In this document: piece after piece, positions 10,515 through 41,442 of the stretch
How positions within the stretch are numbered: position 1 is the stretch's first letter
How the letters are laid out: each line of letters starts with the position of its first letter
IMG/VR virus record: IMGVR_UViG_3300032326_000244
Coordinates: 1-58,039 of that record
Strand: one strand, 5' to 3'
DNA length: 58,039 nt
Source of the DNA: a virus
Lineage: Duplodnaviria > Caudoviricetes
Notes under the pieces: model-generated
What the model saw: only the letters and a program-made list of their open reading frames with translations
What the model was told of the DNA's origin: nothing
The model's database searches: none
Translations under genes and position numbers: made by a program

Positions 10515-10523
10515 TAGTAATCG

Positions 10524-20333: not shown

Positions 20334-20347
20334 TCTATTTGATTTGC

Positions 20348-25685: not shown

Positions 25686-26152
25686 GAAACCTCAGACTTG
25701 CCTTTGGCAATTGGAACAACGTTAATATAGCCTGCGCCCCTTCCAGGGTCTAGACCTTCCTCATTAAGCATGTTTCTGACAATGTCTCTAAACCATCTAT
25801 CGACAATTTCTTCAGGCAGATCACCATCAAATCCATATCCAGCTTGTTTCAATTGTAACACAAATTCGTCATTCCAGTCAAGCTCAAAGAAGCCATTTCT
25901 GATATTATCTTTGTTAACGTGTGTATCCAATACACTTACCCAAGGCTCGCCTCGAGCAGTTGCCCGCTCTTTTGGAGTCATCTTGGCAGTAGCTTCTGCC
26001 TTTTGAGCTGCTTCGGCTGCGTCGAGTGCGGCTTTGGCAATCTTAGCAGAATCTTCTGCGGCCTTCAATGACGCTTCTGCTTCTTCTCTGGCTTTAGCTT
26101 TAATTTTATCGATGCCAGTAAAGCGTTCGATTAAGTTTGTTATTTTCCCCAT
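25682..26152 (-). CDS. conserved hypothetical phage protein
   Basis: N-terminal Ala/Glu coiled coil, then GEPWV...NGFFELDWN; start 26152 or 26164. Confidence 0.7.
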   Translation of the reverse strand: MGKITNLIERFTGIDKIKAKAREEAEASLKAAEDSAKIAKAALDAAEAAQKAEATAKMTPKERATARGEPWVSVLDTHVNKDNIRNGFFELDWNDEFVLQLKQAGYGFDGDLPEEIVDRWFRDIVRNMLNEEGLDPGRGAGYINVVPIAKGKSEVS

Positions 26153-27000
26153 CCGTTCCCCCATAAGTCTACGTGAAGTCTTGGGCTATAGTAATAGCCT
26201 CTTTTTAATGCTTCGTCGGCAATGTGTATACGATTACCATCATAAACACTAACAACACCGCCAACTGGCATAACATAAACTGGTCCGGCAAACCCAGCAT
26301 CTCGATATGCCTTTACAGCCTGATCAACTTCGTCAAATTGTTCTAATTGATCTACTACAAATTTCAAATATACAAAACCGTAATCTTGATAACTAACGAC
26401 AACATCAGGTTTAACAGCATCATTCCATTTTTCACCACTAGCGCTTAACTTAGGACTTACACTAAATGTAATCTCTCTGTGTGAGAAATACCAGTCGTCT
26501 AAGAATGTCTTAAATTCGTCATGTAATAGCTGAGTACCATTTGTTTCAAATGTTAGATTTTTTAAATCTTGCATTTTTGTATGATTTAACAATGCCGGAT
26601 ATAGTTGTTGCCAGCCTAGCAATGGTTCGCCGCCTGTAATAACAAGATGTACATCGTTGCCGTTACTTTGAATCCAACTATTTTTATTAGGTGTTAAATC
26701 TAATAGTTTAGCTACAATCTCGTCAATGGTGTAATAGGGACTTAGTTCTTTAAATGCCGGATGCCAACTAGCATAGCTATCACAACCTGTGTTTACAAGT
26801 GGCAATTCTTCAAATGTTTTATAAAGATGAACACTATTAGCGATAGGTTCTACTTCATTAGTTAGTTCGCCTTTAGGCATGCCAAATCCGGCACATTTAA
26901 AATTACAACCGAATGTTCTTAAAAATACACTAGGCACACCGATAAATCTACCTTCACCTTGTGCCGAGTAAAATACCTCACTGATTTTTATCTTGTCCAT
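26140..27000 (-). CDS. queE: 7-carboxy-7-deazaguanine synthase (radical SAM)
   Basis: ISEVFYSAQGEGRFIGVPSVFLRTFGCNFKC...CDS, VITGGEP, FETNGT, SVSPKL, SPRLH; start at ATG 27000. Confidence 0.9.
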   Translation of the reverse strand: MDKIKISEVFYSAQGEGRFIGVPSVFLRTFGCNFKCAGFGMPKGELTNEVEPIANSVHLYKTFEELPLVNTGCDSYASWHPAFKELSPYYTIDEIVAKLLDLTPNKNSWIQSNGNDVHLVITGGEPLLGWQQLYPALLNHTKMQDLKNLTFETNGTQLLHDEFKTFLDDWYFSHREITFSVSPKLSASGEKWNDAVKPDVVVSYQDYGFVYLKFVVDQLEQFDEVDQAVKAYRDAGFAGPVYVMPVGGVVSVYDGNRIHIADEALKRGYYYSPRLHVDLWGNGWGK

Positions 27001-27229
27001 TTTCTTTCTCTTTCTTAAACTCTTCATACGCAGTTGAGATGCTATCCCAAACTGCCCATTTAAACAACCAAGACAACAAGGATGTTAAACCCAATACTAG
27101 CAACAAAGCACCGATAATTCCAGGTAGTAGAAATCCTATGATAACAGAAGTCATAGCAATGACATAAACCTTTTGCCAAGGTTTCCATTTGCTCCATTGC
27201 CATACAATAAAATTGTAAACGTCTTTCAA
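26978..27229 (-). CDS. small membrane protein
   Basis: Two hydrophobic segments. Confidence 0.65.
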   Translation of the reverse strand: MKDVYNFIVWQWSKWKPWQKVYVIAMTSVIIGFLLPGIIGALLLVLGLTSLLSWLFKWAVWDSISTAYEEFKKEKENGQDKNQ

Positions 27230-27519
27230 TTTTTTAAATTCTCCAGTGTTGCGATTTTGGCAATACGTTCGCCGAAATCTTGATCTTGTGTAATAATATA
27301 TGTAGTAGAATCATTCCTATCACTTCTACGATCATATCGTCTAAACTCTACAACCTTGCCGCCCACAGCTGAATAGACTTTAAAGTTTAATACAGGTTCG
27401 TCGGCAGGCATCGCCTCTTCGGATCTGCTAACTAATCTATTAGATATTTTACTATTGACTTCCTCTAACTCGCGACCTTGGCAAGACCACCGCCACATCA
27501 TTTTTTTAAACCATTTCAT
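27226..27519 (-). CDS. hypothetical phage protein
   Basis: 97 aa, coupled. Confidence 0.7.
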   Translation of the reverse strand: MKWFKKMMWRWSCQGRELEEVNSKISNRLVSRSEEAMPADEPVLNFKVYSAVGGKVVEFRRYDRRSDRNDSTTYIITQDQDFGERIAKIATLENLKN

Positions 27520-28019
27520 TATTGTACCTTTGGAAATTCTGGACTAAAAGGCCAAGATGTATTTGGATCAGGCCTTGGTTTTAGTTTAATGTTTTCTTCA
27601 ATTACTGTGCCGTCATCATCGCACAAGTCTATTTGATATGGTGCAATAATATGTACCGCAGTATCTTCTTCCTGCCAATCGTGGTCTCCGTCGAACAACC
27701 ATCCAGCATTACCTTCGTAGTAGGCTTGTCGAATTTCTTCTTGTTCTTCTTCACCGATATCATCGCTAAATTCAATTTCGATATTAATGCTGTCATCGAA
27801 CTCGCAACCCCAGCCGCAATCTGCTCGAGCATAGGCAACATCGTCGCCCTCCCAAGGAAGATTACAATCTAAGTCGCTTTCTATAAAGCCTTGCCCCCAA
27901 CGATATGTTTCGTTGATATTAAACCAACTGATACTACCATCGATGTTTTCACGAAACATTTCTACATGATAGACAATGCTTTTTTTATGTAGTGGTTTAA
28001 TTACATATACTTGACTCAT
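27519..28019 (-). CDS. acidic hypothetical phage protein
   Basis: Start reassigned to 28019 (MSQVYVIKP), SD AAGGA. Confidence 0.7.
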   Translation of the reverse strand: MSQVYVIKPLHKKSIVYHVEMFRENIDGSISWFNINETYRWGQGFIESDLDCNLPWEGDDVAYARADCGWGCEFDDSINIEIEFSDDIGEEEQEEIRQAYYEGNAGWLFDGDHDWQEEDTAVHIIAPYQIDLCDDDGTVIEENIKLKPRPDPNTSWPFSPEFPKVQ

Positions 28020-28128
28020 AATATTCCTTAATGTAGTACTTCGAAGCAGGATATTGTTGTTGTAGCCATTCCAACAATCCGGGTTCAACCGGCAATCGTA
28101 TACTATCAAATTTGTTAGTAATATACAT
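27997..28128 (-). CDS. small 43-aa ORF not in the supplied track
   Basis: ATG overlaps the folE stop (TAATG); MYITNKFDSIRLPVEPGLLEWLQQQYPASKYYIKEYYESSICN fills the gap. Confidence 0.55.
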   Translation of the reverse strand: MYITNKFDSIRLPVEPGLLEWLQQQYPASKYYIKEYYESSICN

Positions 28129-28871
28129 TATCGTGGAGCAAAATCTTGCTGTAATTTGATGTTGTCAAAGAACTCTTTCTTTGTACCCGGATCGTCTTTA
28201 AACGAACCTTTGAGCACAGTAGTCTGTGTCAAACTTGAGTGTGCCATGATACCACGATTCTCACAGCAACCATGTGTGGCCTGAATATACACTGCTACGT
28301 TTTCTGAGTCAGTAGCTTTGCTAATCTCGCGGGCAATGTCGTTACAAAGTTCCTCCTGGAGAGTTCCTCTTCTGGCACACCACTGAGCGATTCGGGTATA
28401 CTTACTAAGACCGATAAGTTTATTAGCAGCAATAATACCAATATAAGCCACGCCAGCCACAGGTTGGTGATGATGGCTACACATAGAGCGCAACTCACTA
28501 CGTACAACAAGCATACCTTCATAACGGTCCTGCGAATCATTTGGAAATGCTGTTGCGTCTGGTGCTCGTTCATATCTACCTGCCATTATTTCATTAAAGT
28601 ACATCTTGGCAAGCCTACGTGCTGTGCCTTTGCTGTTTGGATCGTTCTCGCGATCAATTAGTAACTTATCTAGAATTTGTTCGAATGCCGGTGTTGCTTC
28701 GTCGATTAGTCGTTCTATATCGCCTTCATGTAGATAATCGCTAATATTATCACCTGCCCAGAAACGTTTGTTTTCACGTTTCATCTTAAAGCGAAGATGA
28801 TCGCCTAGATATGCTTCTTCATATCCGCCATCGCCTGCCATTGCGTCCAGGCCTGTTTCTTTATTTGTCAA
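28128..28871 (-). CDS. folE: GTP cyclohydrolase I
   Basis: DPNSKGTARRLAKMY, SMCSHHHQP, IGLSKYTRI, QEEL, HGCCENRG; TTG start with GGAG SD. Confidence 0.95.
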   Translation of the reverse strand: MTNKETGLDAMAGDGGYEEAYLGDHLRFKMKRENKRFWAGDNISDYLHEGDIERLIDEATPAFEQILDKLLIDRENDPNSKGTARRLAKMYFNEIMAGRYERAPDATAFPNDSQDRYEGMLVVRSELRSMCSHHHQPVAGVAYIGIIAANKLIGLSKYTRIAQWCARRGTLQEELCNDIAREISKATDSENVAVYIQATHGCCENRGIMAHSSLTQTTVLKGSFKDDPGTKKEFFDNIKLQQDFAPR

Positions 28872-28914
28872 TTTTATTTCTCCGAGTTATAGACGAGGAT
28901 GTCTATTATATTTT

Positions 28915-28944
28915 ATTGTACAACATTATTTAGGTTTTTGTCAA
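28915..28944 (-). promoter_or_regulatory. sigma70-type promoter for folE with embedded CTAAATA
   Basis: TTGACA-18 nt-TACAAT; CTAAATA at 28927-28933. Confidence 0.55.
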
Positions 28945-29727
28945 CCTAAGCAATGTATTTTTCTTAACTGCTTCTTTCAAAACATTTAAATTTATATCTA
29001 GTGTTTCCGCATACTTCAATAACGCACTAGTATCTTTAGGGAAACACATACCGCCGAATCCGTTATATCCATCGGGTCCGGGTACTTGAGTATGTGTAAT
29101 TCCAATACGATGATCTTTAGCAACCATATATCGTATTTTGTTCCAGTCGTAGCCGTGTGCCTGCGCTAACTGACTCATTTCATTCATGAACACTACCTTG
29201 GTTGCCAAGAACGAATTGGTAACATACTTTACCATGGCGGCTTCACCGATACCGCAGAATACCGAATCTAATTCGGGTTTGGTATATTTAATAATACGTT
29301 CTGCTTCTCTTTGATAGGCAGGGATGTCTCCGCCTATGATAGCCCACTTTTCATTTGCGTAGTCGTTACGGGCATTGGCCGCAGTTAAAAATTCTGGAAT
29401 ATGTACTAGGTTAGGGTACTGAGTTTGTAAATATTCATATACATTAGGAGTTGCTGTTACCTTTGAAATAATGACGCCTTTGAACTTTTTCAAATTAGTC
29501 ATAGTAGATACTAGCGGCAGTGTATTACAGGTTCCATCGTCATTCATGGGACTAGGCACACAGACAAATACAGCTTCAGCATCTGCTAAATCTGAATATG
29601 TACCGTTGAAGCCTTTGCTAGGATCGGTATCGATAATCACAACATTGGCAAAGCCGGCATAGCTATCAGCAATAGCACTGCCTACAAAGCCGCAGCCTAT
29701 AATACCAATCTTTAGCAAATCAAACAT
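28930..29727 (-). CDS. UDP-glucose/GDP-mannose dehydrogenase-family protein (short, apparently lacking the C-terminal domain)
   Basis: IGIIGCGFVG, FVCVPSP, PEFL, KYVTNSFLATKVVFMNE, GFGGMCFPKD; start 29727. Confidence 0.85.
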   Translation of the reverse strand: MFDLLKIGIIGCGFVGSAIADSYAGFANVVIIDTDPSKGFNGTYSDLADAEAVFVCVPSPMNDDGTCNTLPLVSTMTNLKKFKGVIISKVTATPNVYEYLQTQYPNLVHIPEFLTAANARNDYANEKWAIIGGDIPAYQREAERIIKYTKPELDSVFCGIGEAAMVKYVTNSFLATKVVFMNEMSQLAQAHGYDWNKIRYMVAKDHRIGITHTQVPGPDGYNGFGGMCFPKDTSALLKYAETLDINLNVLKEAVKKNTLLRLTKT

Positions 29728-30007
29728 TGTATTCTTTCCATGTATTTGTTGTATGATCCCAATGTCTGTTATCATAGATAGTTGCGTTAAAGCTATAGCC
29801 AAACACGCCCATTCCTAATGTAGCACCGGCATGATCACACCGTACACGTACAGTAAAATCGAATTCTATAATACAGCCAGTTTTCATCAGTTCAAACTCC
29901 CAGAATTTATTTTTAAATAAAGTAGGGCCAGACCAGTTGCGAATATTTTTAAAATCCCGCCATCCGCTAAAATATGGATTCTCTATGGAAAAAGTAAGTA
30001 CAATCAT
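29720..30007 (-). CDS. hypothetical phage protein
   Basis: 95 aa, coupled. Confidence 0.65.
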   Translation of the reverse strand: MIVLTFSIENPYFSGWRDFKNIRNWSGPTLFKNKFWEFELMKTGCIIEFDFTVRVRCDHAGATLGMGVFGYSFNATIYDNRHWDHTTNTWKEYNV

Positions 30008-30186
30008 ACGTAATCTACTGATTTTTTAGTTCGCAGTTTTCTACACTGTTCTTTGACTTCAGGCGGATAGTCGGGATGAAATTCTGATAACGTACAGTCG
30101 TACACTCTGCCGTCATTATCCGGCACAGTAATCAGTATTAGGAACGCTACTACTAATAAAATTAATGCTACGACTGCTTGTTTCAT
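30004..30186 (-). CDS. small membrane-anchored protein
   Basis: N-terminal TM, YDC..SEFHPDYP.EVKEQCR. Confidence 0.65.
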   Translation of the reverse strand: MKQAVVALILLVVAFLILITVPDNDGRVYDCTLSEFHPDYPPEVKEQCRKLRTKKSVDYV

Positions 30187-30503
30187 GAATTGATATCTCC
30201 TTGATATCGTGGAATCATATGGATATGGGGGTATTTACCGTCTTGACCTGCGATATCGCCTACACTTTGAACAATGTTGAATCCTGCCCACTTTCCAGAT
30301 TCGATTCCATCGTACCCCCACTTATAGGCTGCTCGGTATGATTCGAAGAGACAGTCCATAGACTTTTGGGTAGGCACAAAGCACAAATACCCTTTACAGG
30401 GTGCCTGAGCATCGCGGAATATCCAGAATGTGTTTGTTCTAAACTCGATTTCTTTCCAAGGAGCGCTGCCGTCATTTAGTGCCTTTTCAATATCTGTTGT
30501 CAT
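30183..30503 (-). CDS. HIT family nucleotide hydrolase-like protein
   Basis: IFRD..P..G..CFVP, GFNIVQSVG..AGQ...YPHIHMIPRYQGD. Confidence 0.75.
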   Translation of the reverse strand: MTTDIEKALNDGSAPWKEIEFRTNTFWIFRDAQAPCKGYLCFVPTQKSMDCLFESYRAAYKWGYDGIESGKWAGFNIVQSVGDIAGQDGKYPHIHMIPRYQGDINS

Positions 30504-30509
30504 TATATT

Positions 30510-30713
30510 TTACGATACTAGACTCTTAGCTAGTAATGCGAGCTCGTCATCAGTCATAAAAAACTGATAAGTTGAACTCATATCAACTTCACCGTCTTTA
30601 TCTTTACACTCTTGTATAAACTCAATGGCGTTTAATGTAGATGGGCTGGCACATTTCCAGCTCTTAATTCTCAGTCTAAATCCTAGTGTATCTTTTATCA
30701 AAACTTCTTTCAT
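30510..30713 (-). CDS. hypothetical phage protein
   Basis: 67 aa, coupled. Confidence 0.65.
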   Translation of the reverse strand: MKEVLIKDTLGFRLRIKSWKCASPSTLNAIEFIQECKDKDGEVDMSSTYQFFMTDDELALLAKSLVS

Positions 30714-30949
30714 TGTAATGTCCTTTTGTCTTCTCCGGCCAAGCTGTTAATAATTTTTTCAGCCCACTCGGGTTCTTCTTCCATAAGTTCTTCTAAATCA
30801 ACTTGTCGACTTTGTTCAAAGAGTTCGCCTGATTGTGCCATTTTGGTAATTTCAGCAATCATTTCTTCGAGCTCTTCTTGTGTGCCTTCGAAACTATCAA
30901 AAGCGCCTGGAGCAAATTCGATAGTAATTGGTTTCTTTTCATCAGTCAT
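30710..30949 (-). CDS. acidic hypothetical phage protein
   Basis: Start reassigned to 30949 (MTDEKKPITIEFAPGAFD). Confidence 0.65.
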   Translation of the reverse strand: MTDEKKPITIEFAPGAFDSFEGTQEELEEMIAEITKMAQSGELFEQSRQVDLEELMEEEPEWAEKIINSLAGEDKRTLQ

Positions 30950-31316
30950 ATGTGCCTTTAATACGTTCAAAAGTTTTATATTTTTCCAAAGCCGAAATAT
31001 ACTCATCGTATTTCTTCTTTAGGCTTGGATACTTAGCTTCCATTGTAGCATCTCTTTCAGGAATCATCAAGACTTTTTCAATCGTTTTTAACCGTTCTTC
31101 TAAATCTAATCCGTTAATAACTACTTTTCCAGTTACTTGTAGACTTGCTGGATTTTCTCTAACTGTCATCACTGCTTCGTACGGTTGTCGAATTGAATAG
31201 GCACCGGAGCCGGCACTTCCAACAGCACCGATAGAAGCCCAATTCAAGCCATTAGTGCCTGTTGTTAATACTTGATTAGGTAATGCCGTTGTGTTTGTTA
31301 TGTAAGTATTGCTCAT
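30942..31316 (-). CDS. hypothetical phage protein
   Basis: Thr/Gly-rich N-terminus; LEERL..IEKVL.IPERD...EAKYPSL. Confidence 0.7.
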   Translation of the reverse strand: MSNTYITNTTALPNQVLTTGTNGLNWASIGAVGSAGSGAYSIRQPYEAVMTVRENPASLQVTGKVVINGLDLEERLKTIEKVLMIPERDATMEAKYPSLKKKYDEYISALEKYKTFERIKGTYD

Positions 31317-31743
31317 GTTGAATCCATTTATTTTTTACGAGAAATCCCCATTCTCGTTTTTGCGGTCCCGGCATAAACAATGTCCAGCATTCTACTTCGA
31401 GATCAATTTCGATACGATGATAGCTGTTAGCACTACAGATACGAAAGTGTCCAGGACCTCTCCAGTGTGCCACTTCACTAAATTTTTGTCCGTCTTTATT
31501 AAATTGTGGAATCCATTCCCAATAGCCGCCTTTGAGAATCAGAGTAGCGTAAGGCCATGGATGATCATGCACATCATCGGGATCTGATTTAAGGAACTTG
31601 TGAAGAAACACATTGAAGGGGAAACGCTTTCTATCTTTAAGAAAAAGGTAGTAGCGTTCGAGATACGGCTCGTTTGACTCTCTGTCGAGTACAATTCGTT
31701 TTCTGTCATGTTGTTCCATCCATTTGAAAAACTTATCCTTCAT
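31276..31743 (-). CDS. cupin-fold protein
   Basis: HDHPW...ILKGGYWE...HRIE...WTLF..GP..REWGF; start 31743. Confidence 0.7.
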   Translation of the reverse strand: MKDKFFKWMEQHDRKRIVLDRESNEPYLERYYLFLKDRKRFPFNVFLHKFLKSDPDDVHDHPWPYATLILKGGYWEWIPQFNKDGQKFSEVAHWRGPGHFRICSANSYHRIEIDLEVECWTLFMPGPQKREWGFLVKNKWIQHEQYLHNKHNGIT

Positions 31744-32101
31744 CTTTTGGAGTATCATAGTCGTCCTTTACAAGTGTATAAACAGTTTGAAAATTTCTCA
31801 ATGCGATCTCTAATCCTGGATATTTTTTACACATATCCTGAACTCGTTGCCAGTCTGGAAATGCATCAACAAACTCCTCAGCATCTCCCCAACTAAACTG
31901 ATAATCCGTATTAAGCGTGATAGTATCTGAAGAGTTAATAGTATAAATTGTTCCAGCAGCTCCGGTAGAGATGTTGTAGGAATTCATATTGCTAGTGTCT
32001 ATATAGAGATCACCGCTGGTAGGCCCAGATGTAATGCTAATAGTATTGTCTATATCAAAGAAGTCGTTGAAGGAGTGCGTTGGCTGAGAAGAAGTTGTCA
32101 T
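31733..32101 (-). CDS. hypothetical phage protein
   Basis: Thr/Ser-rich N-terminus; MCKKYPGL C-terminal module. Confidence 0.65.
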   Translation of the reverse strand: MTTSSQPTHSFNDFFDIDNTISITSGPTSGDLYIDTSNMNSYNISTGAAGTIYTINSSDTITLNTDYQFSWGDAEEFVDAFPDWQRVQDMCKKYPGLEIALRNFQTVYTLVKDDYDTPKDEG

Positions 32102-33122
32102 GTAATAATTCCACTTGTTTAGCTATCTGTGGCAATCTAGTATCGTAGTAATCCATATGAGTCATAATGGCACGACAAATATCTGGACGATATACGGTGT
32201 ATGCATCATAACTTTCGGTCCACTTGCTAGGATACTTGAATGTGTCCAATGCCATTTCACTATAGCTAAGTCTATCAGGAACCATTGGGATAGCATCTAC
32301 TACAGCACCCTCGTACCAACTGATGCCCAATGTTTCTTGTAAGTTAGCACTGAACACCATCTTAGCTTGACCTAACAATGTGTGATATTCATGCTTAGTA
32401 AGCTGTTTGTCTTGACAAACAACAAACTCGTATTGTGGCAAGTGTTTAGCTAAGTCACGGAAAATCTCAACTTGCTTTTCTGGAGCAATACGGTGCGGAA
32501 ACAAGATCATGTCTCGTTTCTTCATTCCTTTATAAGGCGCAAGAATATCTTTAAAATACTCCATAGGCCAACCAGTGCGTACAACTTTACCAGTTACATT
32601 GGCAGTAGGGTCATATCCGCCTTTGCCTAGTAAATTCTTACCAAACATCTCAATGTGGAATGTTGTGGCAAAGTAGTTATGGTCAAACGCATGATAAAAA
32701 CTTTGTTCAGCGTGTCTGACCCAAGGCTTGTCTCCAACAAGACGACCTAAGAAGTCCTGGGGATCATAACTGCCAGCATGCCATAGGCCGTGTGTTGTTA
32801 CTGGAATGCCCAGTAACTCACTCATGTACTTGAGATTGATGATACCAGGGTGCCAAGCATCAGTAAATACAAAATGATCACCTGCGCGAATGGTTCCGTC
32901 GCAAAATAGCCGACCCATCTGCTCAACCTGCCGAGCCTTGTAGATGTTTGTGCCGCCAAAATTAAGAAAAGCCCCAGGGGTAGTAGCACTAGGGATATCT
33001 GTAGGGCCGCTGATAACTTGAACATTATGTCCTGCCTTTCGCAAGAGTTCAGGTACATGGGTCTTCCATTGACCCGTGTACCTTGTCTCGACCGATTCTA
33101 AATCAACGAGAAAAACTGTCAT
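32055..33122 (-). CDS. GT-B (GT4-like) glycosyltransferase
   Basis: ILFPHRIAPEKQ, YHTLLGQAKMVFSANLQETLGISWYEG (Ex7E), PMVPDRLSYSEM; start reassigned to 33122. Confidence 0.8.
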   Translation of the reverse strand: MTVFLVDLESVETRYTGQWKTHVPELLRKAGHNVQVISGPTDIPSATTPGAFLNFGGTNIYKARQVEQMGRLFCDGTIRAGDHFVFTDAWHPGIINLKYMSELLGIPVTTHGLWHAGSYDPQDFLGRLVGDKPWVRHAEQSFYHAFDHNYFATTFHIEMFGKNLLGKGGYDPTANVTGKVVRTGWPMEYFKDILAPYKGMKKRDMILFPHRIAPEKQVEIFRDLAKHLPQYEFVVCQDKQLTKHEYHTLLGQAKMVFSANLQETLGISWYEGAVVDAIPMVPDRLSYSEMALDTFKYPSKWTESYDAYTVYRPDICRAIMTHMDYYDTRLPQIAKQVELLHDNFFSANALLQRLL

Positions 33123-33390
33123 TGCGCTGACGGAAGTTATTGCCGTTGTTGTTGCCACTGCGATTAAACTCGCCACGCGGCTTGCGAGTACCATCCCATG
33201 GCTTCTTTGGACGAGTACTGTAATAGAAATTGTTCCAAATTTGACTATTACGATTGTAAAGATTTGCCTCGTTAAAGTCGCACATTTCGAAACGACAAAA
33301 ATCGTGAAACTTTTCTAAGTCGTCGAAAATTTTAACAATATCGGGACGATTCTCAAAGTAGTTAACGTCTTTGTAATTATTCTTAGCCAT
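33103..33390 (-). CDS. hypothetical phage protein
   Basis: 95 aa, AAGGA SD, Asn/Arg-rich tail. Confidence 0.7.
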   Translation of the reverse strand: MAKNNYKDVNYFENRPDIVKIFDDLEKFHDFCRFEMCDFNEANLYNRNSQIWNNFYYSTRPKKPWDGTRKPRGEFNRSGNNNGNNFRQRNDSFSR

Positions 33391-33404
33391 GATAGCTTTC
33401 CTTT

Positions 33405-33800
33405 TTAATACTTAATAAATGAACCATTTTCTCCGTCTTCGGAGACCTCAATCCAAACCTCGCGGTCAGGATACTTTGCTGAGATTTGAGCATATAAATC
33501 ATCGCTCATCATCTCGCAACTTTTATAATCTAGCGACAATACACCTTGTTCGCTAGAATACAACCGTTCAAGCCACCGCTTGAACTGAATGAATTCCACA
33601 TCTCTGTCGTTATGAGTAACTCCGAGCCATACGCGAAAGTGAAATATATGGCGATGAGGAGTGCCAAGAAACGAAACGTCATAATAATCTCCTGTTGCTA
33701 GGTTAGGATCTGTTGCGGCTGCTGGATAACAATGGATTCCTTCTTTACGAAAGGTAACCCAAATCATTTTGTTAGGGCGAATATCTTGTTTAATAATCAT
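33405..33800 (-). CDS. QueD-like T-fold protein, DpdL-type (LxxxHRHxF)
   Basis: EGIHCYP, LGTPHRHIFHFRV, DRDVEF, SCEM, EVSEDGENG; lacks the QueD CxxxHGH; start 33800. Confidence 0.7.
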   Translation of the reverse strand: MIIKQDIRPNKMIWVTFRKEGIHCYPAAATDPNLATGDYYDVSFLGTPHRHIFHFRVWLGVTHNDRDVEFIQFKRWLERLYSSEQGVLSLDYKSCEMMSDDLYAQISAKYPDREVWIEVSEDGENGSFIKY

Positions 33801-34315
33801 GTTGGTGTATCTTGTGTATATTGATCCCAATAGGTAAATTTATCTTTACTCATTAGGCTTTGTAGGTGATGAGTCCACACACCCGGGTTAGTAGCACCCC
33901 AGGTGCGATCATCAAGTTTGAGAGTTGCGTTGTAGTTAAGTTGACTAATGTAAGGCAACTTTACACTAATCATAGGAATAAATTTATCTCGTTCGCAGTA
34001 ACCGCTTTCAAGAACACCTTCGATGTGTTCGACACCGAAGTCTAGAGCGACCCAATAGCCTTCGTCGAGACAACCGAGGATAACTTTATCCCATGCTTGG
34101 TATTCTTCTTGAGTCATTGCTTTTGGATTGAAGCTTTGACTAGTACCAAAGTAAATTTGCTTAATGTCAATGTCTCTGTTTGCTTGTTGTAGTATTTCCT
34201 CAAGAGGGGGTGTGCCAACAACAAACAAAGTTTTCATACCATAAGCAATAGTATGTTCGACTTCATACCCTGTAAAGTAAACGACATTTTGTCGTTCTTC
34301 AGTGTTTAGTCCCAT
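33797..34315 (-). CDS. conserved hypothetical protein in the deazaguanine module
   Basis: FTGYEVE...TLFVVG, IYFG, KLDD..W.ATNPGVW...FT.W.QY..D; coupled to both neighbours. Confidence 0.75.
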   Translation of the reverse strand: MGLNTEERQNVVYFTGYEVEHTIAYGMKTLFVVGTPPLEEILQQANRDIDIKQIYFGTSQSFNPKAMTQEEYQAWDKVILGCLDEGYWVALDFGVEHIEGVLESGYCERDKFIPMISVKLPYISQLNYNATLKLDDRTWGATNPGVWTHHLQSLMSKDKFTYWDQYTQDTPT

Positions 34316-35199
34316 TTAATATAACCTCTGCTGTAACCGTTCGGACGATCCACACCATCCGCAAACGCTTCCTGCCATTCAGTAGTACGATTGTAACACT
34401 GCGTCCAGAAAGAATCAACCTCAAGATAGCCGTTTTCAATCCAGTGACGAGCAAACAACATACAATCGATAAACTGTGGATTTCTTGGACTCGGGAAAGT
34501 CATAGTACAGGCTTTCCAAAGTAAATTGCTAAAATCAGTTGTAACTTCTTTTTGAGCACCAAATATAACTAAGGCATTTTCTCTAAGGATATCTTTTTCA
34601 AAAACATCTAGCTTACTGCTCAAATCAATAACAACGTCGTAGTTTGCTTCTGTATCGGCTTGTAATTTATCGCCCCACAGCTCCTTATTGCTAGACCCAA
34701 CGACATCTATTTGGTAAAAATAACCATTTAGTCGCATAGTGTGATAGGCTACCCAAGCTAAAAATCCACTACCTAGAATTAACATTCTAGAAGTAGTACC
34801 TTGTCGTTTTTCAATTTGATCTTTGGCTTGGTTAATTAGATTGATACCGCAAGCAACCGGTTCCAAGATATACTTAGGCGTTGCTTCAGGAACCTTTACA
34901 TATTCGTTAGCACGAACATTATAAATGTCTGCGTATGCTGGTTCGCCTCGAGTGGCAACAAAGTCCCCGAACTCTACATCCTTGATATTAGCACCAATAC
35001 CAATAACTTTACCAATGCCTTCGTGCCCTTGCATGTGTATGGGTAACGGACTAAAATTGCCCATCATCATATCTATGTCGCTACGACATACGCCAGTCAT
35101 TACAGCACGAACGCAAATTTCGTCTTCTGTTAATGGCGGAACGTGATATTCGGTTTCGTAAAAGAAACCGTTTCCTTCTGTTGCTAGTACTCTATTCAT
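34306..35199 (-). CDS. MDR (Zn-alcohol dehydrogenase-like) oxidoreductase
   Basis: GVCRSD, GHEGIG, LEPVACG, ILGSGFLA; no structural-Zn lobe. Confidence 0.8.
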   Translation of the reverse strand: MNRVLATEGNGFFYETEYHVPPLTEDEICVRAVMTGVCRSDIDMMMGNFSPLPIHMQGHEGIGKVIGIGANIKDVEFGDFVATRGEPAYADIYNVRANEYVKVPEATPKYILEPVACGINLINQAKDQIEKRQGTTSRMLILGSGFLAWVAYHTMRLNGYFYQIDVVGSSNKELWGDKLQADTEANYDVVIDLSSKLDVFEKDILRENALVIFGAQKEVTTDFSNLLWKACTMTFPSPRNPQFIDCMLFARHWIENGYLEVDSFWTQCYNRTTEWQEAFADGVDRPNGYSRGYIKWD

Positions 35200-36071
35200 A
35201 ATTTTTCTATTTGTTCATGAATCCAGATATCTTGAGCGAATTGCTTTTTCCAGAACTCATCATTATTTAGGTTTTTAACGGCTGTCTCTACCATAGTCTT
35301 GTAAGCTGATTCAGGACACAATCCTAAAGCGTGTCTTACAGCACTATTCCTCATACTAAAAGAAATGCTACTGTCATCATGATCCAAATTAGTTTTCCAG
35401 TTAGCACTTAATAACCAAGTGGTATTGCCATTTTTAAATTCAAGTTTACAAAAATCATCTACATCATAGACGCCATTGGGATTAACTGTGCCGTAGTCTG
35501 TACTAGTTATATCGGACAACAAATAATTTTGCATAGCTATTGCGTCGATTTTTCTACCTTGTGTATAGTCTGTCAACGCACAGTAGTAACTAAGCATATG
35601 AGGAATTAAGTCTCTGCTAACTCCGCCAAATGCTAATTCTTTTGTAGTAAACCAACTACCAGGTTGTGGAATTCTGTTGGCATTATTCCACCGAACATAG
35701 ACTCTATCACTTTGCTCCGATTGACTTTTGAATAGTTTAATCTCGTCTCTATATTGGTTATTCTTAACCATCATAAAACGTGTGTTAGGAAAGTCCTCTA
35801 CTAGACAAAACCAGCACTTACTATCCTGTACACCTGGCTTTTCAATTAACACAATCTTACATTTACTAGCAATAGTTCTTGCTATTAGCTCATGTGTAAA
35901 GTTGGGTGTACAAATAACAGCAATGTCGTATTCATCTACAATATTATCTACAGTTTTAAATGTTGCGTTCTTTTCTGGATTAGAATCGACAGTGTCAATT
36001 TCATAGCCAAGGCTGGCGAATACGGAATGATATAGTTGTCCTATACCCAATCCTACAATTAGTGCCTTCAT
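35196..36071 (-). CDS. Gfo/Idh/MocA family oxidoreductase
   Basis: IVGLGIG, ICTPNFTH, LIEKPG, GSWF...AFGGVSRDLIPH, DVDD. Confidence 0.85.
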   Translation of the reverse strand: MKALIVGLGIGQLYHSVFASLGYEIDTVDSNPEKNATFKTVDNIVDEYDIAVICTPNFTHELIARTIASKCKIVLIEKPGVQDSKCWFCLVEDFPNTRFMMVKNNQYRDEIKLFKSQSEQSDRVYVRWNNANRIPQPGSWFTTKELAFGGVSRDLIPHMLSYYCALTDYTQGRKIDAIAMQNYLLSDITSTDYGTVNPNGVYDVDDFCKLEFKNGNTTWLLSANWKTNLDHDDSSISFSMRNSAVRHALGLCPESAYKTMVETAVKNLNNDEFWKKQFAQDIWIHEQIEKL

Positions 36072-36319
36072 TCTTTTTTACTTTCTTCGTATTGCTTAAA
36101 CAGTCTAGTTACTGGTTCCATACGTTCTTGAAACACATCTGGAGCACCTTCGGATGCCCTAGACATATCCCACTCGCTAGGAAAGTGTCTAAGGATACTA
36201 TATGCTTCACCGCGCACTTTTTTAGGAACACGGGGATAGTCTTTGGCATTGTGGGCTAGATCTGTTAAGAATCTTTTAGCCCACATTACGGAACGGTATC
36301 TTTCATCTGGTAATGTCAT
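36068..36319 (-). CDS. BPSL0761-like small protein
   Basis: MTLPDERYRSV...FL.DL...PRVPK.VR.EA..ILRHFP. Confidence 0.65.
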   Translation of the reverse strand: MTLPDERYRSVMWAKRFLTDLAHNAKDYPRVPKKVRGEAYSILRHFPSEWDMSRASEGAPDVFQERMEPVTRLFKQYEESKKE

Positions 36320-38012
36320 GCTGTATTTCGTTTTCTAGTTGATCTAGTTTGTCAATTTGGTCTTCGGCAAATTCGCCATCTTCACTTGATTGTACACTAT
36401 CATCCTCTTCTTCGTCAAATAGATTGGCAAAGTGTGTACTGGCATTAACTGTCTTTTTACCAATAGCGCCGCGTGTACCCGGGATAGCTTGCCAAAATTT
36501 ATCAAAACTATCGATAATAGCTTCAGCTGTTGCTCTATCGGGCGCACTAAAAATAGCATCTACTACGTCTTTAAAGTATACACGTTGGAATCTTTCATCT
36601 ACTAACATGGCAGGACATAGACCAGCATCATATTGTCGATTAGCTTCTTGTACACTGTTTAAATGTAGCCACACATTATGACCCATCATGATTGCGTAGG
36701 TGAAACTATCCCACGATGTTTTGCCTTCTTTGCCTATCTTATTTAGGTCGCCTGGACCGTAGATACAAATATCTTTAACTTCGACACCGTCCATTAATGG
36801 ACTTGTGGTAAAGGACTTAAAGTGTCCATCTTGAACAACAACATCTTGGAACAGTCGAGTGTCTTTGGCATACTTCTTGTTATCAAGACTTGGCAACATA
36901 CGATACAGCCATTTTTCTCTATCTACAATTTCAGTTTGTACGTAAATTTGTCCGTTGGCAGTGGCAAGGAAAGGGCTAGCACAGTCAAAGCTAATTGTAA
37001 ACTTAGGATTGTGATATTTACGAACAGCACGTTGAATGTCTGTTAGTAGTAATGCCCATTCTAATTTACTAGTGCCCAAGAAGTGCATCCAGTCTTGGTG
37101 ACCTTCTTCCAGTAATCCATCGAACTTTAATGCCACCAGTCTACGTAGAACCAAGTCCACGTCACACATATTCTGACCACCCATTGCCCAGCCGTTAAAT
37201 GGTTTGTCATATTTTGTTGGGTCGCAAAAGTCTTTCATCTGCTGGTACCAATCTTCTGCCTGTGCGTGATTCTCACCTTGTAGAACATTTAAGAACTTAC
37301 AAGCACCTGTACGGTGTTTAATAAAGTATTCATTATTGTACTTGGTAGCGGCAACGGCTTGTTCATAACTGCCAATGCCACTGTTCTTAGCACCTACTGG
37401 ACTACGACCTACCCATGCTGGAATATCAAGTACCATGCCGTAATCCATCAAGGCATCCATCCATGCTAGAACTTGTTCACGTTTCTTTTGTGCTGCATCT
37501 AGTTTAGCTTGATAAAGTTTAACGTGGTCAATCTTAGTATACTTGACGTTTCCATTTTTATCTAACTTAGGATCACCAGTTGGATGTAATTGCGGAACAA
37601 GCTCAACACCTTTGGCAACTGCTTCTGCCATACGTTGTGCTACTTCTACACCAGTGGGATCATTCCATTCACCTTCCCACACACCTTTACCAATCTGGAA
37701 ACCTCCAGAGTCACCTAGCACCCAACTAGTTGAACGATCTCTATTACGAAACATATCTTCGCTTGGGTCAGGCTTAGTTAAATCTAAATTAGCGTGTCCA
37801 GCTGAATATAAGCAATGGTCGAAGTAAAATGCCGCATTTGGATTTAGGTAATTCATCGCCTCGATACCTAGCGGCCCAAAGCTCGCTGGAATACGAGCAG
37901 GGTCTACATAGTTATTGTAGCGTTGCTTGCCTATATAAGTGCTATAAAATCCCGACGTTGCCGGCAGGAAATAAGCATAGTCGTTTTGCGATGCGGTTAA
38001 ATTACGGTTCAT
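36303..38012 (-). CDS. TGT-fold guanine transglycosylase (DpdA/Tgt-like)
   Basis: GDSGGFQIG, MVLDIP, LNVLQG, GWAMGG, MHFLGTS, ISFDCASP, GHNV. Confidence 0.85.
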   Translation of the reverse strand: MNRNLTASQNDYAYFLPATSGFYSTYIGKQRYNNYVDPARIPASFGPLGIEAMNYLNPNAAFYFDHCLYSAGHANLDLTKPDPSEDMFRNRDRSTSWVLGDSGGFQIGKGVWEGEWNDPTGVEVAQRMAEAVAKGVELVPQLHPTGDPKLDKNGNVKYTKIDHVKLYQAKLDAAQKKREQVLAWMDALMDYGMVLDIPAWVGRSPVGAKNSGIGSYEQAVAATKYNNEYFIKHRTGACKFLNVLQGENHAQAEDWYQQMKDFCDPTKYDKPFNGWAMGGQNMCDVDLVLRRLVALKFDGLLEEGHQDWMHFLGTSKLEWALLLTDIQRAVRKYHNPKFTISFDCASPFLATANGQIYVQTEIVDREKWLYRMLPSLDNKKYAKDTRLFQDVVVQDGHFKSFTTSPLMDGVEVKDICIYGPGDLNKIGKEGKTSWDSFTYAIMMGHNVWLHLNSVQEANRQYDAGLCPAMLVDERFQRVYFKDVVDAIFSAPDRATAEAIIDSFDKFWQAIPGTRGAIGKKTVNASTHFANLFDEEEDDSVQSSEDGEFAEDQIDKLDQLENEIQHDITR

Positions 38013-38740
38013 TTGCTTTGGGCTGGCAAGATGTAGTTGTATTCTGCCATGCCGCTATCCACAGTAATCATCATGGCACCGGCATCACTAATTTTCATAG
38101 TTTTGTCGCCTGCTAATCCTAAGATTTGCATAACTTGTGTAACTGGCCACGACCATGCGCTTTTTAATTTGCCGCCTGCTGGAGTTTGGAATGTAAATTT
38201 ACCTGCGTGTGTACTGGCATCACCAAAGCTAACAATCAAGTCTCCGTTTTCTGTCTTAACTTGGAAGACAGTTTCTTCTGAGTGTGCTTGACTTTGGAAC
38301 TTCAAACGCTGAATACTGGCAACTGCTGGTTGGAATTCAATCTCCCAAGCCGCACCTTTAAACTTTACTGTTTTAAGTTTCTCGTTAATAATCTCTGTGC
38401 TCATGAAACGGTAGTCATTGTGAAAGTCGCCTGTTGCGTTTTCAAAATGCATAGTAGTTGGGATCTCTACTCCGTTACGTTGTTGACGAACAACTTCAAT
38501 CTTGGCATTGTCTTTGTACTCCGGGCACTTCAAGTGAAGATTAAGTTTGTCCAAGTTAGGCATACCAAATGTGCCTTGAAACTCATCGACTGGTGTATGA
38601 GTCTTTGCTGTTAGAATAACACTACGGTCTTCTGCCATAGATTCGATGTTAGTTTCTTGGACAGTTCCTGAGATTTTAATGATAGGCAAAAATCCTAGGG
38701 CGTGTGTATGTGTTACGATGTCTTGTAAAATGTCTTTCAT
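38009..38740 (-). CDS. probable DNA polymerase sliding clamp (gp45/PCNA-like)
   Basis: 243 aa, directly downstream of polB; two-repeat alpha/beta pattern ending YNYILPA; polB ends in a clamp-binding-like motif. Confidence 0.6.
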   Translation of the reverse strand: MKDILQDIVTHTHALGFLPIIKISGTVQETNIESMAEDRSVILTAKTHTPVDEFQGTFGMPNLDKLNLHLKCPEYKDNAKIEVVRQQRNGVEIPTTMHFENATGDFHNDYRFMSTEIINEKLKTVKFKGAAWEIEFQPAVASIQRLKFQSQAHSEETVFQVKTENGDLIVSFGDASTHAGKFTFQTPAGGKLKSAWSWPVTQVMQILGLAGDKTMKISDAGAMMITVDSGMAEYNYILPAQSK

Positions 38741-38757: not shown

Positions 38758-38786
38758 AGTATATAGATATTTAGGTCAGAAGTCAA
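38758..38786 (-). promoter_or_regulatory. sigma70-type promoter with embedded CTAAATA for the clamp-TGT operon
   Basis: TTGACT-17 nt-TATACT; CTAAATA at 38768-38774. Confidence 0.65.
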
Positions 38787-41442
38787 ATAATTTATTAAAA
38801 GTATTTGTCTGTTCGGTTGATCTGACGTCCCAATTAAGTACGCCAATTAAGTTTGATAGCTTATTATCGATAATTGTATTTTCCATTTCTTCATGGTTAA
38901 AGGGTAAATCTTTAAACCACTGAGGCAAACGCAATTCGTCTACTGGATAAGCTACGCTGGTAAATCCTAGAGGATTATCTTTTAGTTTACAAACAATGAC
39001 TTTGGCACCGTCTGTAATACCCATTGAATATTTGTCTCCGAACATTCGTTTGAGTGTATTCCAATTAATGCTGGCACGTACATGTCCTGGCATATTGGCT
39101 TTACCTGCTTTAGCTTCTTTACTTTGGTAATCTGTAATGTTGTTGGCACGTTTAGGCGAACCCTTTTCCCATCCAGGACGTACTTTAAAGTTAGTTCTAA
39201 AGTCGGTGATAAAATCTAATACATCACGTTCTTCTTCACCAGTTAGAACTTTCTCCAATATATCGCTTAAGAAGTTTTGAATAAATTCAGGAGTGTCACT
39301 GCGCTTAAGGTCTAAGCCCATGGCTTTAATCTTGCCTGGCTTGTCGTCTACATCAAGACGTTTGCCTTCTTTGTCATAGTACAATACAGCATAACGCTTC
39401 TTAGTAATGAACAAACCCTTACTAGCCACAATTTCGCGACCTGCTTTGATAACTTCACCACGCGACTTTGGACAATGAAATGTGTCTTGCATAAACTTGG
39501 GAAACGTACTGTTAACTTCGTTACCCACTTGGTCATACAACTGTATTACAGTTTCTTTTGTCCACGGGATTTGACCCGAGTCGATATCTTTCTTAAGCGT
39601 TTTATAAGCAGAAAAATAACAACTATCAGTATCGCCGTATATAATAGCTTTTCCACGATAATCAAACTCCCCAGTAATAATCTCGTTAACTTTGCCAGCC
39701 ATGTGTTTAACAATCTGACGACCTGTTAATGTAGTTGACTGTCCGATACGCTTGTCATAGAAGCGACAATGCGGATTTAGAATAGCACCATACAAACTGT
39801 TCAAGTTAATTTTCTTAACCAGCTGTCGTTTATCCCAGTATTCCTCTTCAACTTTGTTTCCTGCTTTGATAGCGTCCTTTAGTTTGGCCTGCATATCCTT
39901 ACGCTCGGCATACCAACGCTTTAACAAGCCTGGGATAACTCCTTCCTTTTCATAGGTAAAGATTGTACCATTGGCACTGATCATCAAACTGGCATTGCTT
40001 TCAAAGATGATCTTATACACCTCAGCCGCACTCAACAAATCACTGCGACCGTCTTCCCAGTCGATTGCGATGTCAGTTCCGATTTCTTTATTCATTACAG
40101 CAGTATACTCTAAACTACCGAATATGCCTTCCCATGCTGCCGCAAAGCTCTTGCCTTTACTTACTAGGTTGTCGATGTATTCCTGCGTCTTGTCTTGACG
40201 CAACTGTCCAACAATAGTTTCTGGCCCCATATTGAGCGCACGAATCGCACTGGGATACAGACTGTTAATGTCTAAGGAACCAATCCATTCGTGAATGCCT
40301 TCTTTAGGATAGGCAACATAAGCACCTGCGGCACCTTCATTTTCTTCATTGTCATTTCTACGTACCTTGTTAGGCACTTGAAAGCCTCGACGGTGTGCTT
40401 CGTTAATAATAGCCTGCTCAGTTACAGCCACCGCACCCATTGTTGTTTGAATCAATACAGTACATTCGTGTGCCAGTGTGTTAGCGAGATCCAAGAACTT
40501 TAACTTTTTATCCAACTTGTCCAGCAAGGCTGTATCTTGTCTGTTATAAACAACAAACTTACGGAAGTCATTGTTATACAACTGATCCAATGTGCCTTCG
40601 TAGACAGTTTTAGTTTCGCCAATTTCCATCTCACCGATAGCGTCCAGTCGATAGGTATGACGTTCTTCATATGTGTACTTGCGATATAGTTCGAGACTGT
40701 CCAAGTGTACACGACCAATCAAGTCGTATGTTGTGGCAGTCTTACCATACTTTTCAAATTCACGTTTCTTAGGATACTGATCCCACAGACACATTCTACG
40801 TGTGTCGTCTTTACTGAGCACTTTGGTAATACGATTGACAGTGTAAGGCATATCAAAGCCTTCGCTGTTCCAACCACTGAGAACATCAGCATCTTGTATT
40901 AAGTTTAAGAATGTATCAAGTAAATCTGCTTCGTTGTCAAAGATATGTGTGTTTGGCAAATCTTTAACAAGTTCTTCGGCTTGAGCTATGGTCATGCCCT
41001 TGGGAGGCATAGCAAGACATACCAATGTATCTAACCATTGTAGGTGAACAGCAATCGCAGTAATTGGCATAAACGCATCGTCTGGACTAGCGTAGCCACG
41101 TTCAGGATCAAAGTCCACCTCAATGTCCCAGAAAGCGACATTTAGCTTAGGTGCGTCTTGATTAATGTAATTTTCACTTAGACATGCTACGATGGGATTG
41201 ATATCCGCTTCGTAGAGTTTCTTCCCGTTGTTTATTTTTAACTCTTTATGGAAGTCTTTAGAGTTTCTACAGACAATGCGACTTAGGGGATCTCCGTAAA
41301 TTGATTGAAATTTACCACGAGTATCCTCGTAATAGAAAGTGTAACGTACAGGGAATTCTTTAAATTCTCTCTGCCCGTCTTTATTTCTCTCTACCACTCG
41401 CACAATGTCCGCATTTCTATCAAAGTATGCGTCAACGTACAA
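38776..41442 (-). CDS. family B DNA polymerase (T4 gp43-like)
   Basis: Exo DIEVD, GWNSEGFDMPY, YNRQD; pol DINSLYPS, KINLNSLYG, YGDTDS, KKRY; C-terminal QTNTFNKLFDF; TTG start with AGGAGA SD. Confidence 0.96.
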   Translation of the reverse strand: MYVDAYFDRNADIVRVVERNKDGQREFKEFPVRYTFYYEDTRGKFQSIYGDPLSRIVCRNSKDFHKELKINNGKKLYEADINPIVACLSENYINQDAPKLNVAFWDIEVDFDPERGYASPDDAFMPITAIAVHLQWLDTLVCLAMPPKGMTIAQAEELVKDLPNTHIFDNEADLLDTFLNLIQDADVLSGWNSEGFDMPYTVNRITKVLSKDDTRRMCLWDQYPKKREFEKYGKTATTYDLIGRVHLDSLELYRKYTYEERHTYRLDAIGEMEIGETKTVYEGTLDQLYNNDFRKFVVYNRQDTALLDKLDKKLKFLDLANTLAHECTVLIQTTMGAVAVTEQAIINEAHRRGFQVPNKVRRNDNEENEGAAGAYVAYPKEGIHEWIGSLDINSLYPSAIRALNMGPETIVGQLRQDKTQEYIDNLVSKGKSFAAAWEGIFGSLEYTAVMNKEIGTDIAIDWEDGRSDLLSAAEVYKIIFESNASLMISANGTIFTYEKEGVIPGLLKRWYAERKDMQAKLKDAIKAGNKVEEEYWDKRQLVKKINLNSLYGAILNPHCRFYDKRIGQSTTLTGRQIVKHMAGKVNEIITGEFDYRGKAIIYGDTDSCYFSAYKTLKKDIDSGQIPWTKETVIQLYDQVGNEVNSTFPKFMQDTFHCPKSRGEVIKAGREIVASKGLFITKKRYAVLYYDKEGKRLDVDDKPGKIKAMGLDLKRSDTPEFIQNFLSDILEKVLTGEEERDVLDFITDFRTNFKVRPGWEKGSPKRANNITDYQSKEAKAGKANMPGHVRASINWNTLKRMFGDKYSMGITDGAKVIVCKLKDNPLGFTSVAYPVDELRLPQWFKDLPFNHEEMENTIIDNKLSNLIGVLNWDVRSTEQTNTFNKLFDF

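Follow-up and report, generated by a model that had tools for sequence, protein, structure and literature searches.

What would a phage make from a set of deazaguanine genes, a glycosyltransferase (GT) and sugar-type dehydrogenases that lie beside its DNA polymerase gene? The question is raised by IMG/VR record IMGVR_UViG_3300032326_000244, a stretch of 58,039 nt of phage DNA that we have analyzed at its full length and call the window. An earlier note on this sequence had read, after the family B DNA polymerase gene (polB), a minus-strand run encoding a clamp, a tRNA-guanine transglycosylase (TGT)- or DpdA-like enzyme, a Gfo/Idh/MocA oxidoreductase, a medium-chain dehydrogenase/reductase (MDR), a T-fold protein, a GT, a cupin, a HIT protein, a sugar dehydrogenase, FolE and QueE. 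It had proposed that the GT and three NAD(P) oxidoreductases put a sugar on a deazaguanine in DNA or in tRNA. All these reading frames lie where the note had placed them, and all are on the minus strand. Among the 80 closest IMG/VR loci, all those with sufficient flank keep the gene order, which is therefore not due to chance. We read the region, with a confidence a little above even, as a 7-deazaguanine DNA-modification module of the QueC-free DpdL type that is set in jumbo-phage replication genes and carries a glycosylation branch. The deazaguanine DNA module as such is well founded.

The record is 16% complete by CheckV, and is therefore a piece of a phage genome of ~360 kb. Close relatives measure 383 kb (100% complete) and 356 kb (96% complete). 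The public runs that contain the window are labeled freshwater, lake water or metagenome, and megablast with the region gave no match among cultured phages. For comparison 163 uncultured loci were fetched, with 122 distinct transglycosylase sequences among them. A locus was counted if FolE was reached or at least 8 kb lay downstream, which left 54 unique loci, and genes were scored as present at thresholds of 40% and 30% identity over half of the query. A transglycosylase tree was calculated for sequences from related loci (n = 50; five rows were dropped because of a stop in the translated match).

The 569-aa product of 36303..38012 (−) has no sequence match in Pfam, PHROG, NCBIfam or the PDB. 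Its AlphaFold2 (AF2) model, from an alignment of 71 sequences of 24–90% identity, has a predicted local distance difference test (pLDDT) value of 91.7. The best 50 matches of the model in Foldseek are all tRNA-guanine transglycosylases (best E = 6.3e-8, with a template-modeling score of 0.52 on the target), and VIA-align superimposes it on the T. maritima TGT with Z = 17.3 and a root-mean-square deviation (rmsd) of 4.4 over 309/361 residues. The predicted structure therefore settles the TGT fold, and the protein is a divergent, DpdA-like base transglycosylase, as had been read from the letters. Five residues, D101, S102, G104, D196 and D343, are invariant in the 71 homologues. We take the D101-S102-G-G104 motif, D196 and D343 to supply the substrate-binding and nucleophile aspartates of a TGT. 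The roles of the D-S-G-G-F-Q motif and of a later aspartate nucleophile are known from the Z. mobilis enzyme. The D-S-G-G stretch aligns with homologues in phages ACP17 and BUDD, and in hhalign the family profile matches the ACP17 gene next to dpdL at 96% and the BUDD gene annotated 'queuine tRNA-ribosyltransferase' at 95%. The former is taken to be the dpdA expressed by Cui et al. The match to DpdA3 of phage phiST (CGPG_00065), a protein of 259 aa compared with 569 aa here, is weak, at 82% and E = 1e-5 over only 86 columns. An Atlas cluster has PF01702 on 17% of its members, which is a lead only. In public metagenomes at least 7,632 of the 8,000 candidates scored belong to the family at E ≤ 1e-3, with 940 clusters at 50% identity reaching the same threshold.

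The base that this enzyme would insert is probably of the 7-deazaguanine type. FolE, or GTP cyclohydrolase I (28128..28871 (−); PF01227, E = 3.9e-40), and a QueE-like radical SAM protein, the synthase of 7-carboxy-7-deazaguanine (CDG) (26140..27027 (−); phrog_2076, E = 2.4e-52, with a weak match to Pfam Radical_SAM), are both encoded, as had been called. The T-fold gene lies at 33405..33830 (−), with a likely start at 33800, and matches phrog_17812 with E = 5.8e-32. Its translation contains LxxxHRHxF, which can be read directly. The earlier note had seen this motif correctly, but had not made the link to a published family. In the available text of Cui, Hutinet et al. (NAR 2023, PMC10516641) LxxxHRHxF in place of the QueD sequence CxxxHGH is the signature of DpdL, a QueD paralogue without the cysteine required by PTPS and QueD, and the proposed CDG decarboxylase in the pathway by which Cellulophaga phage phiST makes 2'-deoxy-7-deazaguanosine (dDG) with DpdL and DpdA3. 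The window protein is 33% identical to phiST DpdL (tblastn, 86% of the query, E = 8e-10) and does not reach Pfam PTPS (PF01242) at E = 0.01. By its sequence we assign it to the DpdL family.

The note's statement that the window has no queC, queF, Gat-QueC or canonical queD held on closer search. No queD was matched in the window with PF01242, and neither QueF nor Gat-QueC was found among the ~55 window open reading frames (ORFs) scanned against Pfam. The search for QueC (PF06508) gave a single match of 11 bits, which falls within a gene for a ClpB-like chaperone and was rejected as spurious. Each of the two relatives that are 96–100% complete encodes a single canonical QueD at another place in its genome, and no QueC. 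The pathway is therefore of the QueC-free phiST type. A gene of the xanthine-guanine phosphoribosyltransferase type lies inside the deazaguanine cluster of Synechococcus phage BUCT-ZZ01 (L177) and of a relative locus (L110:9621-10184), a hint that a deazaguanine nucleotide is made in some lineages as well. In Vibrio phage Bakedbeans (L180) the 383-aa gp176 ends in the DpdL homologue, which is fused to an N-terminal part of ~260 aa.

Is the modified molecule DNA or tRNA? The transglycosylase gene lies among replication genes. polB (38776..41442 (−); PF00136, E = 4.7e-38; PF03104, E = 2.1e-17) is followed by the gene for a probable sliding clamp of 243 aa (38009..38740 (−)). The clamp call, first made from the letters, is borne out by a match to phrog_12062 (E = 1.2e-36) and by 32% identity to a Phosso gene that carries the annotation sliding clamp; the identity to the corresponding PA5oct gene is 36%, and both of these adjoin polB. 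The PA5oct polB is annotated as two pieces with a homing-endonuclease gene between them. The polymerase of the window ends in F-x-x-L-F-D-F, and a tail with F..LF is found in 140/158 related loci. The disordered acidic tail of the transglycosylase contains a polB-like F-x-x-L-F-D. Only three of the 178 window ORFs have F..LF[DES], namely the polB C-terminus, the transglycosylase tail and a radical SAM protein at 4574-5887. In the transglycosylase tail the motif is present in 51/115 close relatives and 10/94 distant representatives. Because the tail shares this C-terminal motif of polB, DNA is favored over tRNA as the target.

A complex prediction for the clamp with transglycosylase residues 505-569 gave a score of 0.44, compared with 0.00 for the best control. 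Contact agreement between runs was at least 43% and partner pLDDT at least 42. The mark used for such scores is reached by 58/80 solved complexes and 2/110 mismatched pairs, but at scores of 0.60 or below by only 7/80 solved complexes and by both of the passing mismatches. Since clamp-peptide complexes have already been solved, the pass may reflect likeness only, and the prediction gives weak support to a contact between clamp and tail. The radical SAM protein at 4574-5887 (+) ends in F-K-R-L-F-D, as in the polB and transglycosylase tails. To judge from this sequence it might likewise be tethered to the clamp and act on DNA.

The alternative, that the transglycosylase and GT act on tRNA to give a glycosylated queuosine-like base, draws on the fold, which is that of the tRNA-guanine transglycosylases, and on the glycosylated queuosines of eukaryotic tRNA. 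Against it, the transglycosylase gene stands between the clamp gene and polymerase-linked genes, and its product shares the polB tail motif. Without QueC there should be no preQ0, preQ1 or queuosine. QTMAN_N (PF12038) was not matched at E = 1 in a six-frame hidden Markov model search of the window and four relatives. All tested phage deazaguanine systems modify DNA, according to the available text of PMC10516641, and the DNA of the Pseudomonas jumbo phage PA5oct resists restriction enzymes that cut G-containing sites (PMC12191111; in the text available, mass spectrometry was run on phages other than PA5oct). We regard a tRNA substrate as highly improbable. On the indirect evidence of the replication context, the PA5oct restriction resistance and the clamp-type motif, DNA is the favored target.

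The second component of the proposal is the GT. The ORF runs from 32055 to 33194 (−), and the public gene call starts at its 25th codon. The true start is probably this one, giving a protein of 355 aa at 32055..33122 (−). The sequence matches no Pfam GT family, including Glycos_transf_1, at E = 0.01, and a single-sequence search of the PDB gave no match. Its model (pLDDT 72.3) has 281 Foldseek matches at E ≤ 0.001, led by GT4 and GT5 enzymes. The top ones are glycogen synthase, PglA, MshA and BshA (best E = 3.5e-8), and VIA aligns it with BshA over 297 residues with Z = 22.1 and rmsd 3.0. Glutamates E263 and E271 are invariant in 46 GT sequences and have the spacing of EX7E, a motif in the C-terminal domain of GT4 enzymes. 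An Atlas cluster has PF00534 on 29% of its members, and some sources annotate close relatives as 'glycosyltransferase'. The GT-B call thus survives, and by its modeled fold and its conserved glutamates the protein is a real GT4-like enzyme.

The GT is tied to the deazaguanine genes. The GT, DpdL and a 172-aa gene are present in all 54 of the unique related loci with enough flank. Among cultured phages tblastn found 28 records with a DpdL homologue and 22 with a GT homologue. GT and DpdL lie within ~3 kb of each other in 17 records (11 PA5oct-like phages, Phosso, two of ACP17, BUDD, X1 and BCSR5), and in BUCT-ZZ01 an alternative GT (64% identical to that of a relative) is directly beside DpdL, bringing the total to 18/28. 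These 18 records fall into seven lineages with different backbones; the polB of ACP17 and of BUDD is 27% identical to that of the window. The GT homologues beside DpdL are 49% identical to the window protein in Phosso, 45% in PA5oct and 35% in ACP17. Independent support for the linkage comes from these cultured lineages, and by comparative genomics the case for a coupling of the GT to the deazaguanine module is strong.

These data bear on the simplest alternative, in which the phage makes plain dDG as phiST does, and the GT and dehydrogenases have another task, such as glycosylating a phage or host protein, the cell envelope or a further metabolite, and owe their place to an insertion hot spot of the replication module. 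Phages of the phiST type make dDG from FolE, QueD, QueE, DpdL and DpdA3 with no GT (available text of PMC10516641). Between the transglycosylase and FolE genes there is indeed a hot spot, which has received methyltransferases, a phosphoribosyltransferase, a redoxin and a cupin. Five distant GT matches of 26% identity sit in a GlmS and deacetylase context without deazaguanine genes. Against this reading, the GT keeps its position beside DpdL in seven cultured lineages whose backbones are unrelated. It does so even in Phosso, where the GT adjoins DpdL and the transglycosylase is ~170 kb distant. Of the related loci with enough flank, none is without a GT (0/54), and where the type of GT changes, the neighboring sugar enzyme changes with it. 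We consider plain dDG rather unlikely.

The sugar enzymes themselves are more variable than had been supposed. The Gfo/Idh/MocA NAD(P) oxidoreductase (35196..36071 (−)) was called correctly, with PF01408 at 28.3 bits against a cut-off of 24; its C-terminal domain reaches 17.3 bits only, and its best PDB sequence match is DgpA (5.9e-4). The next gene (34306..35199 (−)) does encode a zinc-type MDR, with ADH_N at E = 1e-9 and matches in the PDB to alcohol and threonine dehydrogenases (down to 2.4e-10); all NCBIfam families are far below their cut-offs. Both genes are optional. They always occur as a pair, and only beside the GT type of the window (GT379), in 31/41 such loci, compared with 0/13 of those with the alternative GT. 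The 54 loci thus comprise 31 with GT379, Gfo and MDR, 10 with GT379 alone, 11 with the alternative GT and an extended short-chain dehydrogenase/reductase (SDR) of the NDP-sugar epimerase/dehydratase type (PF01370, E = 5.6e-46 to 2.2e-54), and two with the alternative GT alone. The alternative GT is a GT4-type protein of ~390–400 aa that matches Pfam Glycos_transf_1 with E = 7e-5, below the cut-off. On the transglycosylase tree the Gfo-MDR pair has been gained or lost at least three times. The same interval in relatives contains methyltransferases, a weak sulfotransferase-like match and a phosphoribosyltransferase.

A third oxidoreductase, of the UDP-glucose/GDP-mannose dehydrogenase family, is encoded at 28930..29802 (−), with a likely start at 29727 (PF00984, E = 4.6e-23; PF03721, E = 2.3e-9; TIGR03026, E = 2e-38, below its cut-off). 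The family had been named correctly, but the protein is truncated. It aligns to residues ~78–300 of enzymes of ~450 aa, and ends where the C-terminal UDP-binding domain should begin. The N-terminal and central domains are present, and a G-G-x-C-x-x-K-D stretch is readable. Most close relatives have a truncated dehydrogenase-like gene upstream of the clamp gene (a 256-aa paralogue, e.g. L036:7809-8579) that is 35–40% identical to the copy in the window; the window and its nearest kin have the truncated gene beside FolE instead. The earlier note had proposed the GT and the three NAD(P) oxidoreductases as the enzymes that build and attach the sugar, and co-occurrence of GT, Gfo and MDR with the transglycosylase as a check. 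All three oxidoreductases are present, but they are no fixed set, the first two being optional (31/54 loci) and the third truncated and elsewhere in relatives; the GT alone co-occurs throughout. The dehydrogenases are optional, swappable tailoring genes.

Another use of the same genes would be the synthesis of a small glycoside of a pterin or a deazapurine, comparable to the biopterin glucosides of cyanobacteria. It would be made by FolE, the T-fold protein, the reductases and the GT, and would not be placed in DNA. FolE and a PTPS-like T-fold protein do lie beside a GT4 enzyme, and reduction of a pterin side chain could fall to the two dehydrogenases. The GT model aligns with the tetrahydrobiopterin glucosyltransferase 5zes with Z = 19.3, and most of its top neighbors use small acceptors; 5zes, however, is at rank 44, ~3 Z units below BshA. 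Against such a product, QueE and the TGT-fold transglycosylase are in every cluster examined, DpdL lacks the cysteine of PTPS and QueD (PMC10516641, as available), and the genes are flanked by those for the clamp and RNase H-type replication proteins. In the sister lineages the SDRs belong to the extended NDP-sugar type (PF01370, to 2e-54) and do not resemble sepiapterin reductase. A free glycoside is in our view improbable.

A modified deazaguanine in DNA would be made as follows. FolE, QueE and a QueD whose gene lies outside the window would make CDG, as known enzymology leads us to expect, and the DpdL-family protein would convert CDG into 7-deazaguanine. The transglycosylase would then replace guanine in the phage DNA by the deazaguanine base. 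It would probably do so at the replication fork, with the tail motif shared with polB holding it to the sliding clamp. The GT may add a sugar from an NDP-sugar to the deazaguanine, either as the free base before insertion or as the base in DNA. From their families and the swapping of genes, Gfo and MDR, the truncated sugar dehydrogenase and perhaps the cupin could modify the donor or the attached sugar, and related phages would have other tailoring enzymes at the same position. The phage would be expected to escape in this way from restriction and from other defenses that target DNA. We tentatively propose, then, as a possibility that falls somewhat short of an even chance, that guanine is replaced by a 7-deazaguanine bearing a C- or N-linked sugar that differs between lineages, the base being installed at the fork by a clamp-riding transglycosylase. 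As part of the same tentative reading, the swapped enzymes (Gfo and MDR, the SDR epimerase/dehydratase and methyltransferases) might lie behind a lineage-specific sugar. A hydroxymethyl-pyrimidine acceptor like that of T4 is excluded, because the two relatives that are 96–100% complete have no ThyA-type hydroxymethylase (PF00303); the window has ThyX only (16684-17358). The original proposal is partly supported. What remains of it is the link of the GT to the deazaguanine genes, with DNA favored over tRNA, and not the fixed set of oxidoreductases.

Several points weigh against this proposal. 7-Deazaguanine has no hydroxyl, so that the sugar would need an N- or C-linkage or a prior oxidation, and this would be an unusual reaction among GT4 enzymes. 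Confidence in the GT model is only moderate (pLDDT 72.3). Its best structural neighbors (BshA, MshA, sucrose-phosphate synthase and OtsA) act on small molecules, and phage DNA glucosyltransferases are not among the best 50 rows of the Foldseek or VIA lists. The small acceptors of these neighbors keep alive both the route by way of the free base and the pterin glycoside discussed above. DpdL has no nearby GT in 10/28 phage records, comprising five phiST-like phages, RHph_I1_18, Ahp1, D479, Bakedbeans and MA9V-3 (the last from tblastn only), and the DNA of phiST contains plain dDG (available text of PMC10516641). Since the 54 uncultured loci are close kin and the type of GT changes once on the transglycosylase tree, the association within the clade is little more than shared ancestry. 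With respect to the transglycosylase, none of the 71 family members reaches Pfam TGT (PF01702) at E = 0.01, and the 71-member profile finds no TGT among PDB sequences at E up to 1. The decarboxylase activity of DpdL is only proposed in the source study, and expression of dpdL and dpdA of ACP17 or phiST in E. coli gave no dDG (Cui et al. 2023, PMC10516641, in the text available). A sugar-bearing base is, as far as the accessible literature goes, a prediction from genes in this phage, PA5oct, ACP17, Phosso, BUDD and BUCT-ZZ01.

Among known systems, the module has in common with phiST the FolE, QueD, QueE and LxxxHRHxF DpdL proteins, a distant TGT homologue, the lack of QueC and a location beside polymerase genes. 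phiST, however, has no GT, no 172-aa protein and no sugar dehydrogenases, all of which are encoded in the window. PA5oct and the Acidovorax phage ACP17 have the same transglycosylase family (32% identity), the same GT family, and DpdL proteins that are 55% and 54% identical, together with QueE and FolE beside polB. Missing from their loci are Gfo, MDR, the cupin and the UGDH-like gene. Iyer et al. (2021, PMC7824862) list a system for deazaguanine synthesis and incorporation in PA5oct, with no mention of a GT in the text available, and the word 'glycosyltransferase' occurs 0 times in the available text of PMC10516641. The T-even phages, which glucosylate 5-hydroxymethylcytosine, are alike in concept, having a phage-made base and a GT-B transferase, with a sugar that varies among relatives. 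But their acceptor is a pyrimidine made by way of a ThyA-type hydroxymethylase, while that of the window has no obvious hydroxyl, and the T4 transferases are not among the best 50 rows of either structural list. The GT4 enzymes with small acceptors (BshA, MshA, GlgM and the tetrahydrobiopterin glucosyltransferase) align over the whole of the GT with Z = 19–22 and share the EX7E-spaced glutamates, at 8–16% sequence identity.

The earlier note knew of no glycosylated deazaguanine in DNA, and none is described in the literature searched, although the supplementary gene tables of PMC10516641 and PMC7824862 lay beyond reach and may list a GT. The natural DNA deazaguanines named in the texts consulted all have small 7-substituents, and the sugar decorations of DNA mentioned there are on pyrimidines. 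If the proposal is true, DNA hypermodification would gain a new chemical class, with the first glycosylated purine in DNA. It could explain why dpdL and dpdA of ACP17 gave no product on their own. It would also identify the G modification of PA5oct, a candidate phage for therapy, and bear on sensitivity to modification-dependent nucleases. Given the size of the families (>7,600 relatives of the transglycosylase and 8,000 of the GT scored in public metagenomes), such chemistry would be common in freshwater jumbo phages, and the swapping of tailoring enzymes by lineage suggests an arms race with defenses that read modifications.

The remaining genes of the cluster are small. The 172-aa protein (33797..34315 (−)) is encoded in all related jumbo-phage loci and in ACP17 (31% identity, E = 7e-11), and has no match in Pfam, PHROG, NCBIfam or the PDB as a single sequence or a profile. 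It was not detected in PA5oct, Phosso, BUDD and BCSR5, whose similarly placed genes gave at most 1.2% in hhalign. The cupin-type protein (31276..31758 (−)) matches phrog_4786 ('cysteine dioxygenase') with E = 1.9e-36, in agreement with its first reading; it is optional, being encoded by many of the relatives though not by all, and was not detected in the loci of cultured phages. The ORF at 30183..30503 (−) had been called HIT, but has no Pfam or NCBIfam family and shows a two-histidine motif only, and that call falls. Its homologues are found in 22 loci. Three further ORFs match no family. One of 83 aa (36068..36319 (−)) is 46–92% identical in close relatives, one of 95 aa (33103..33390 (−)) is conserved in relatives, and one of 122 aa (31733..32101 (−)) is patchily conserved.

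A scan of contigs for the module gave nine that are filed under metagenome-assembled genomes of several phyla, labeled Crocinitomicaceae, Fischerella, Erysipelotrichaceae, Neomarinimicrobiota, Methanobacteriota and Legionellales. They were considered as bacterial islands carrying the module. However, all nine have the phage module or fragments of it, three have polB and the clamp gene, and one contig is 335 kb long. They are therefore probably phage contigs binned with cells, and the islands were rejected.

Elsewhere in the window, ClpB-like double-AAA chaperone (753 aa), peptide deformylase and DnaJ homologue genes lie in a row at 51306-54880 (−), and the phage thus has its own protein-folding set. 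A MoxR-type AAA ATPase gene adjoins one for a DUF2201 metallopeptidase/VWA protein at 19064-21439 (−). At 590-16687 there is a block of 14 ORFs of ~180–470 aa, on both strands and of lower G+C. Ten of these match Radical_SAM at E ≤ 1e-3, three of the ten with SPASM at the N-terminal end, and the block also contains a nitroreductase-like gene.

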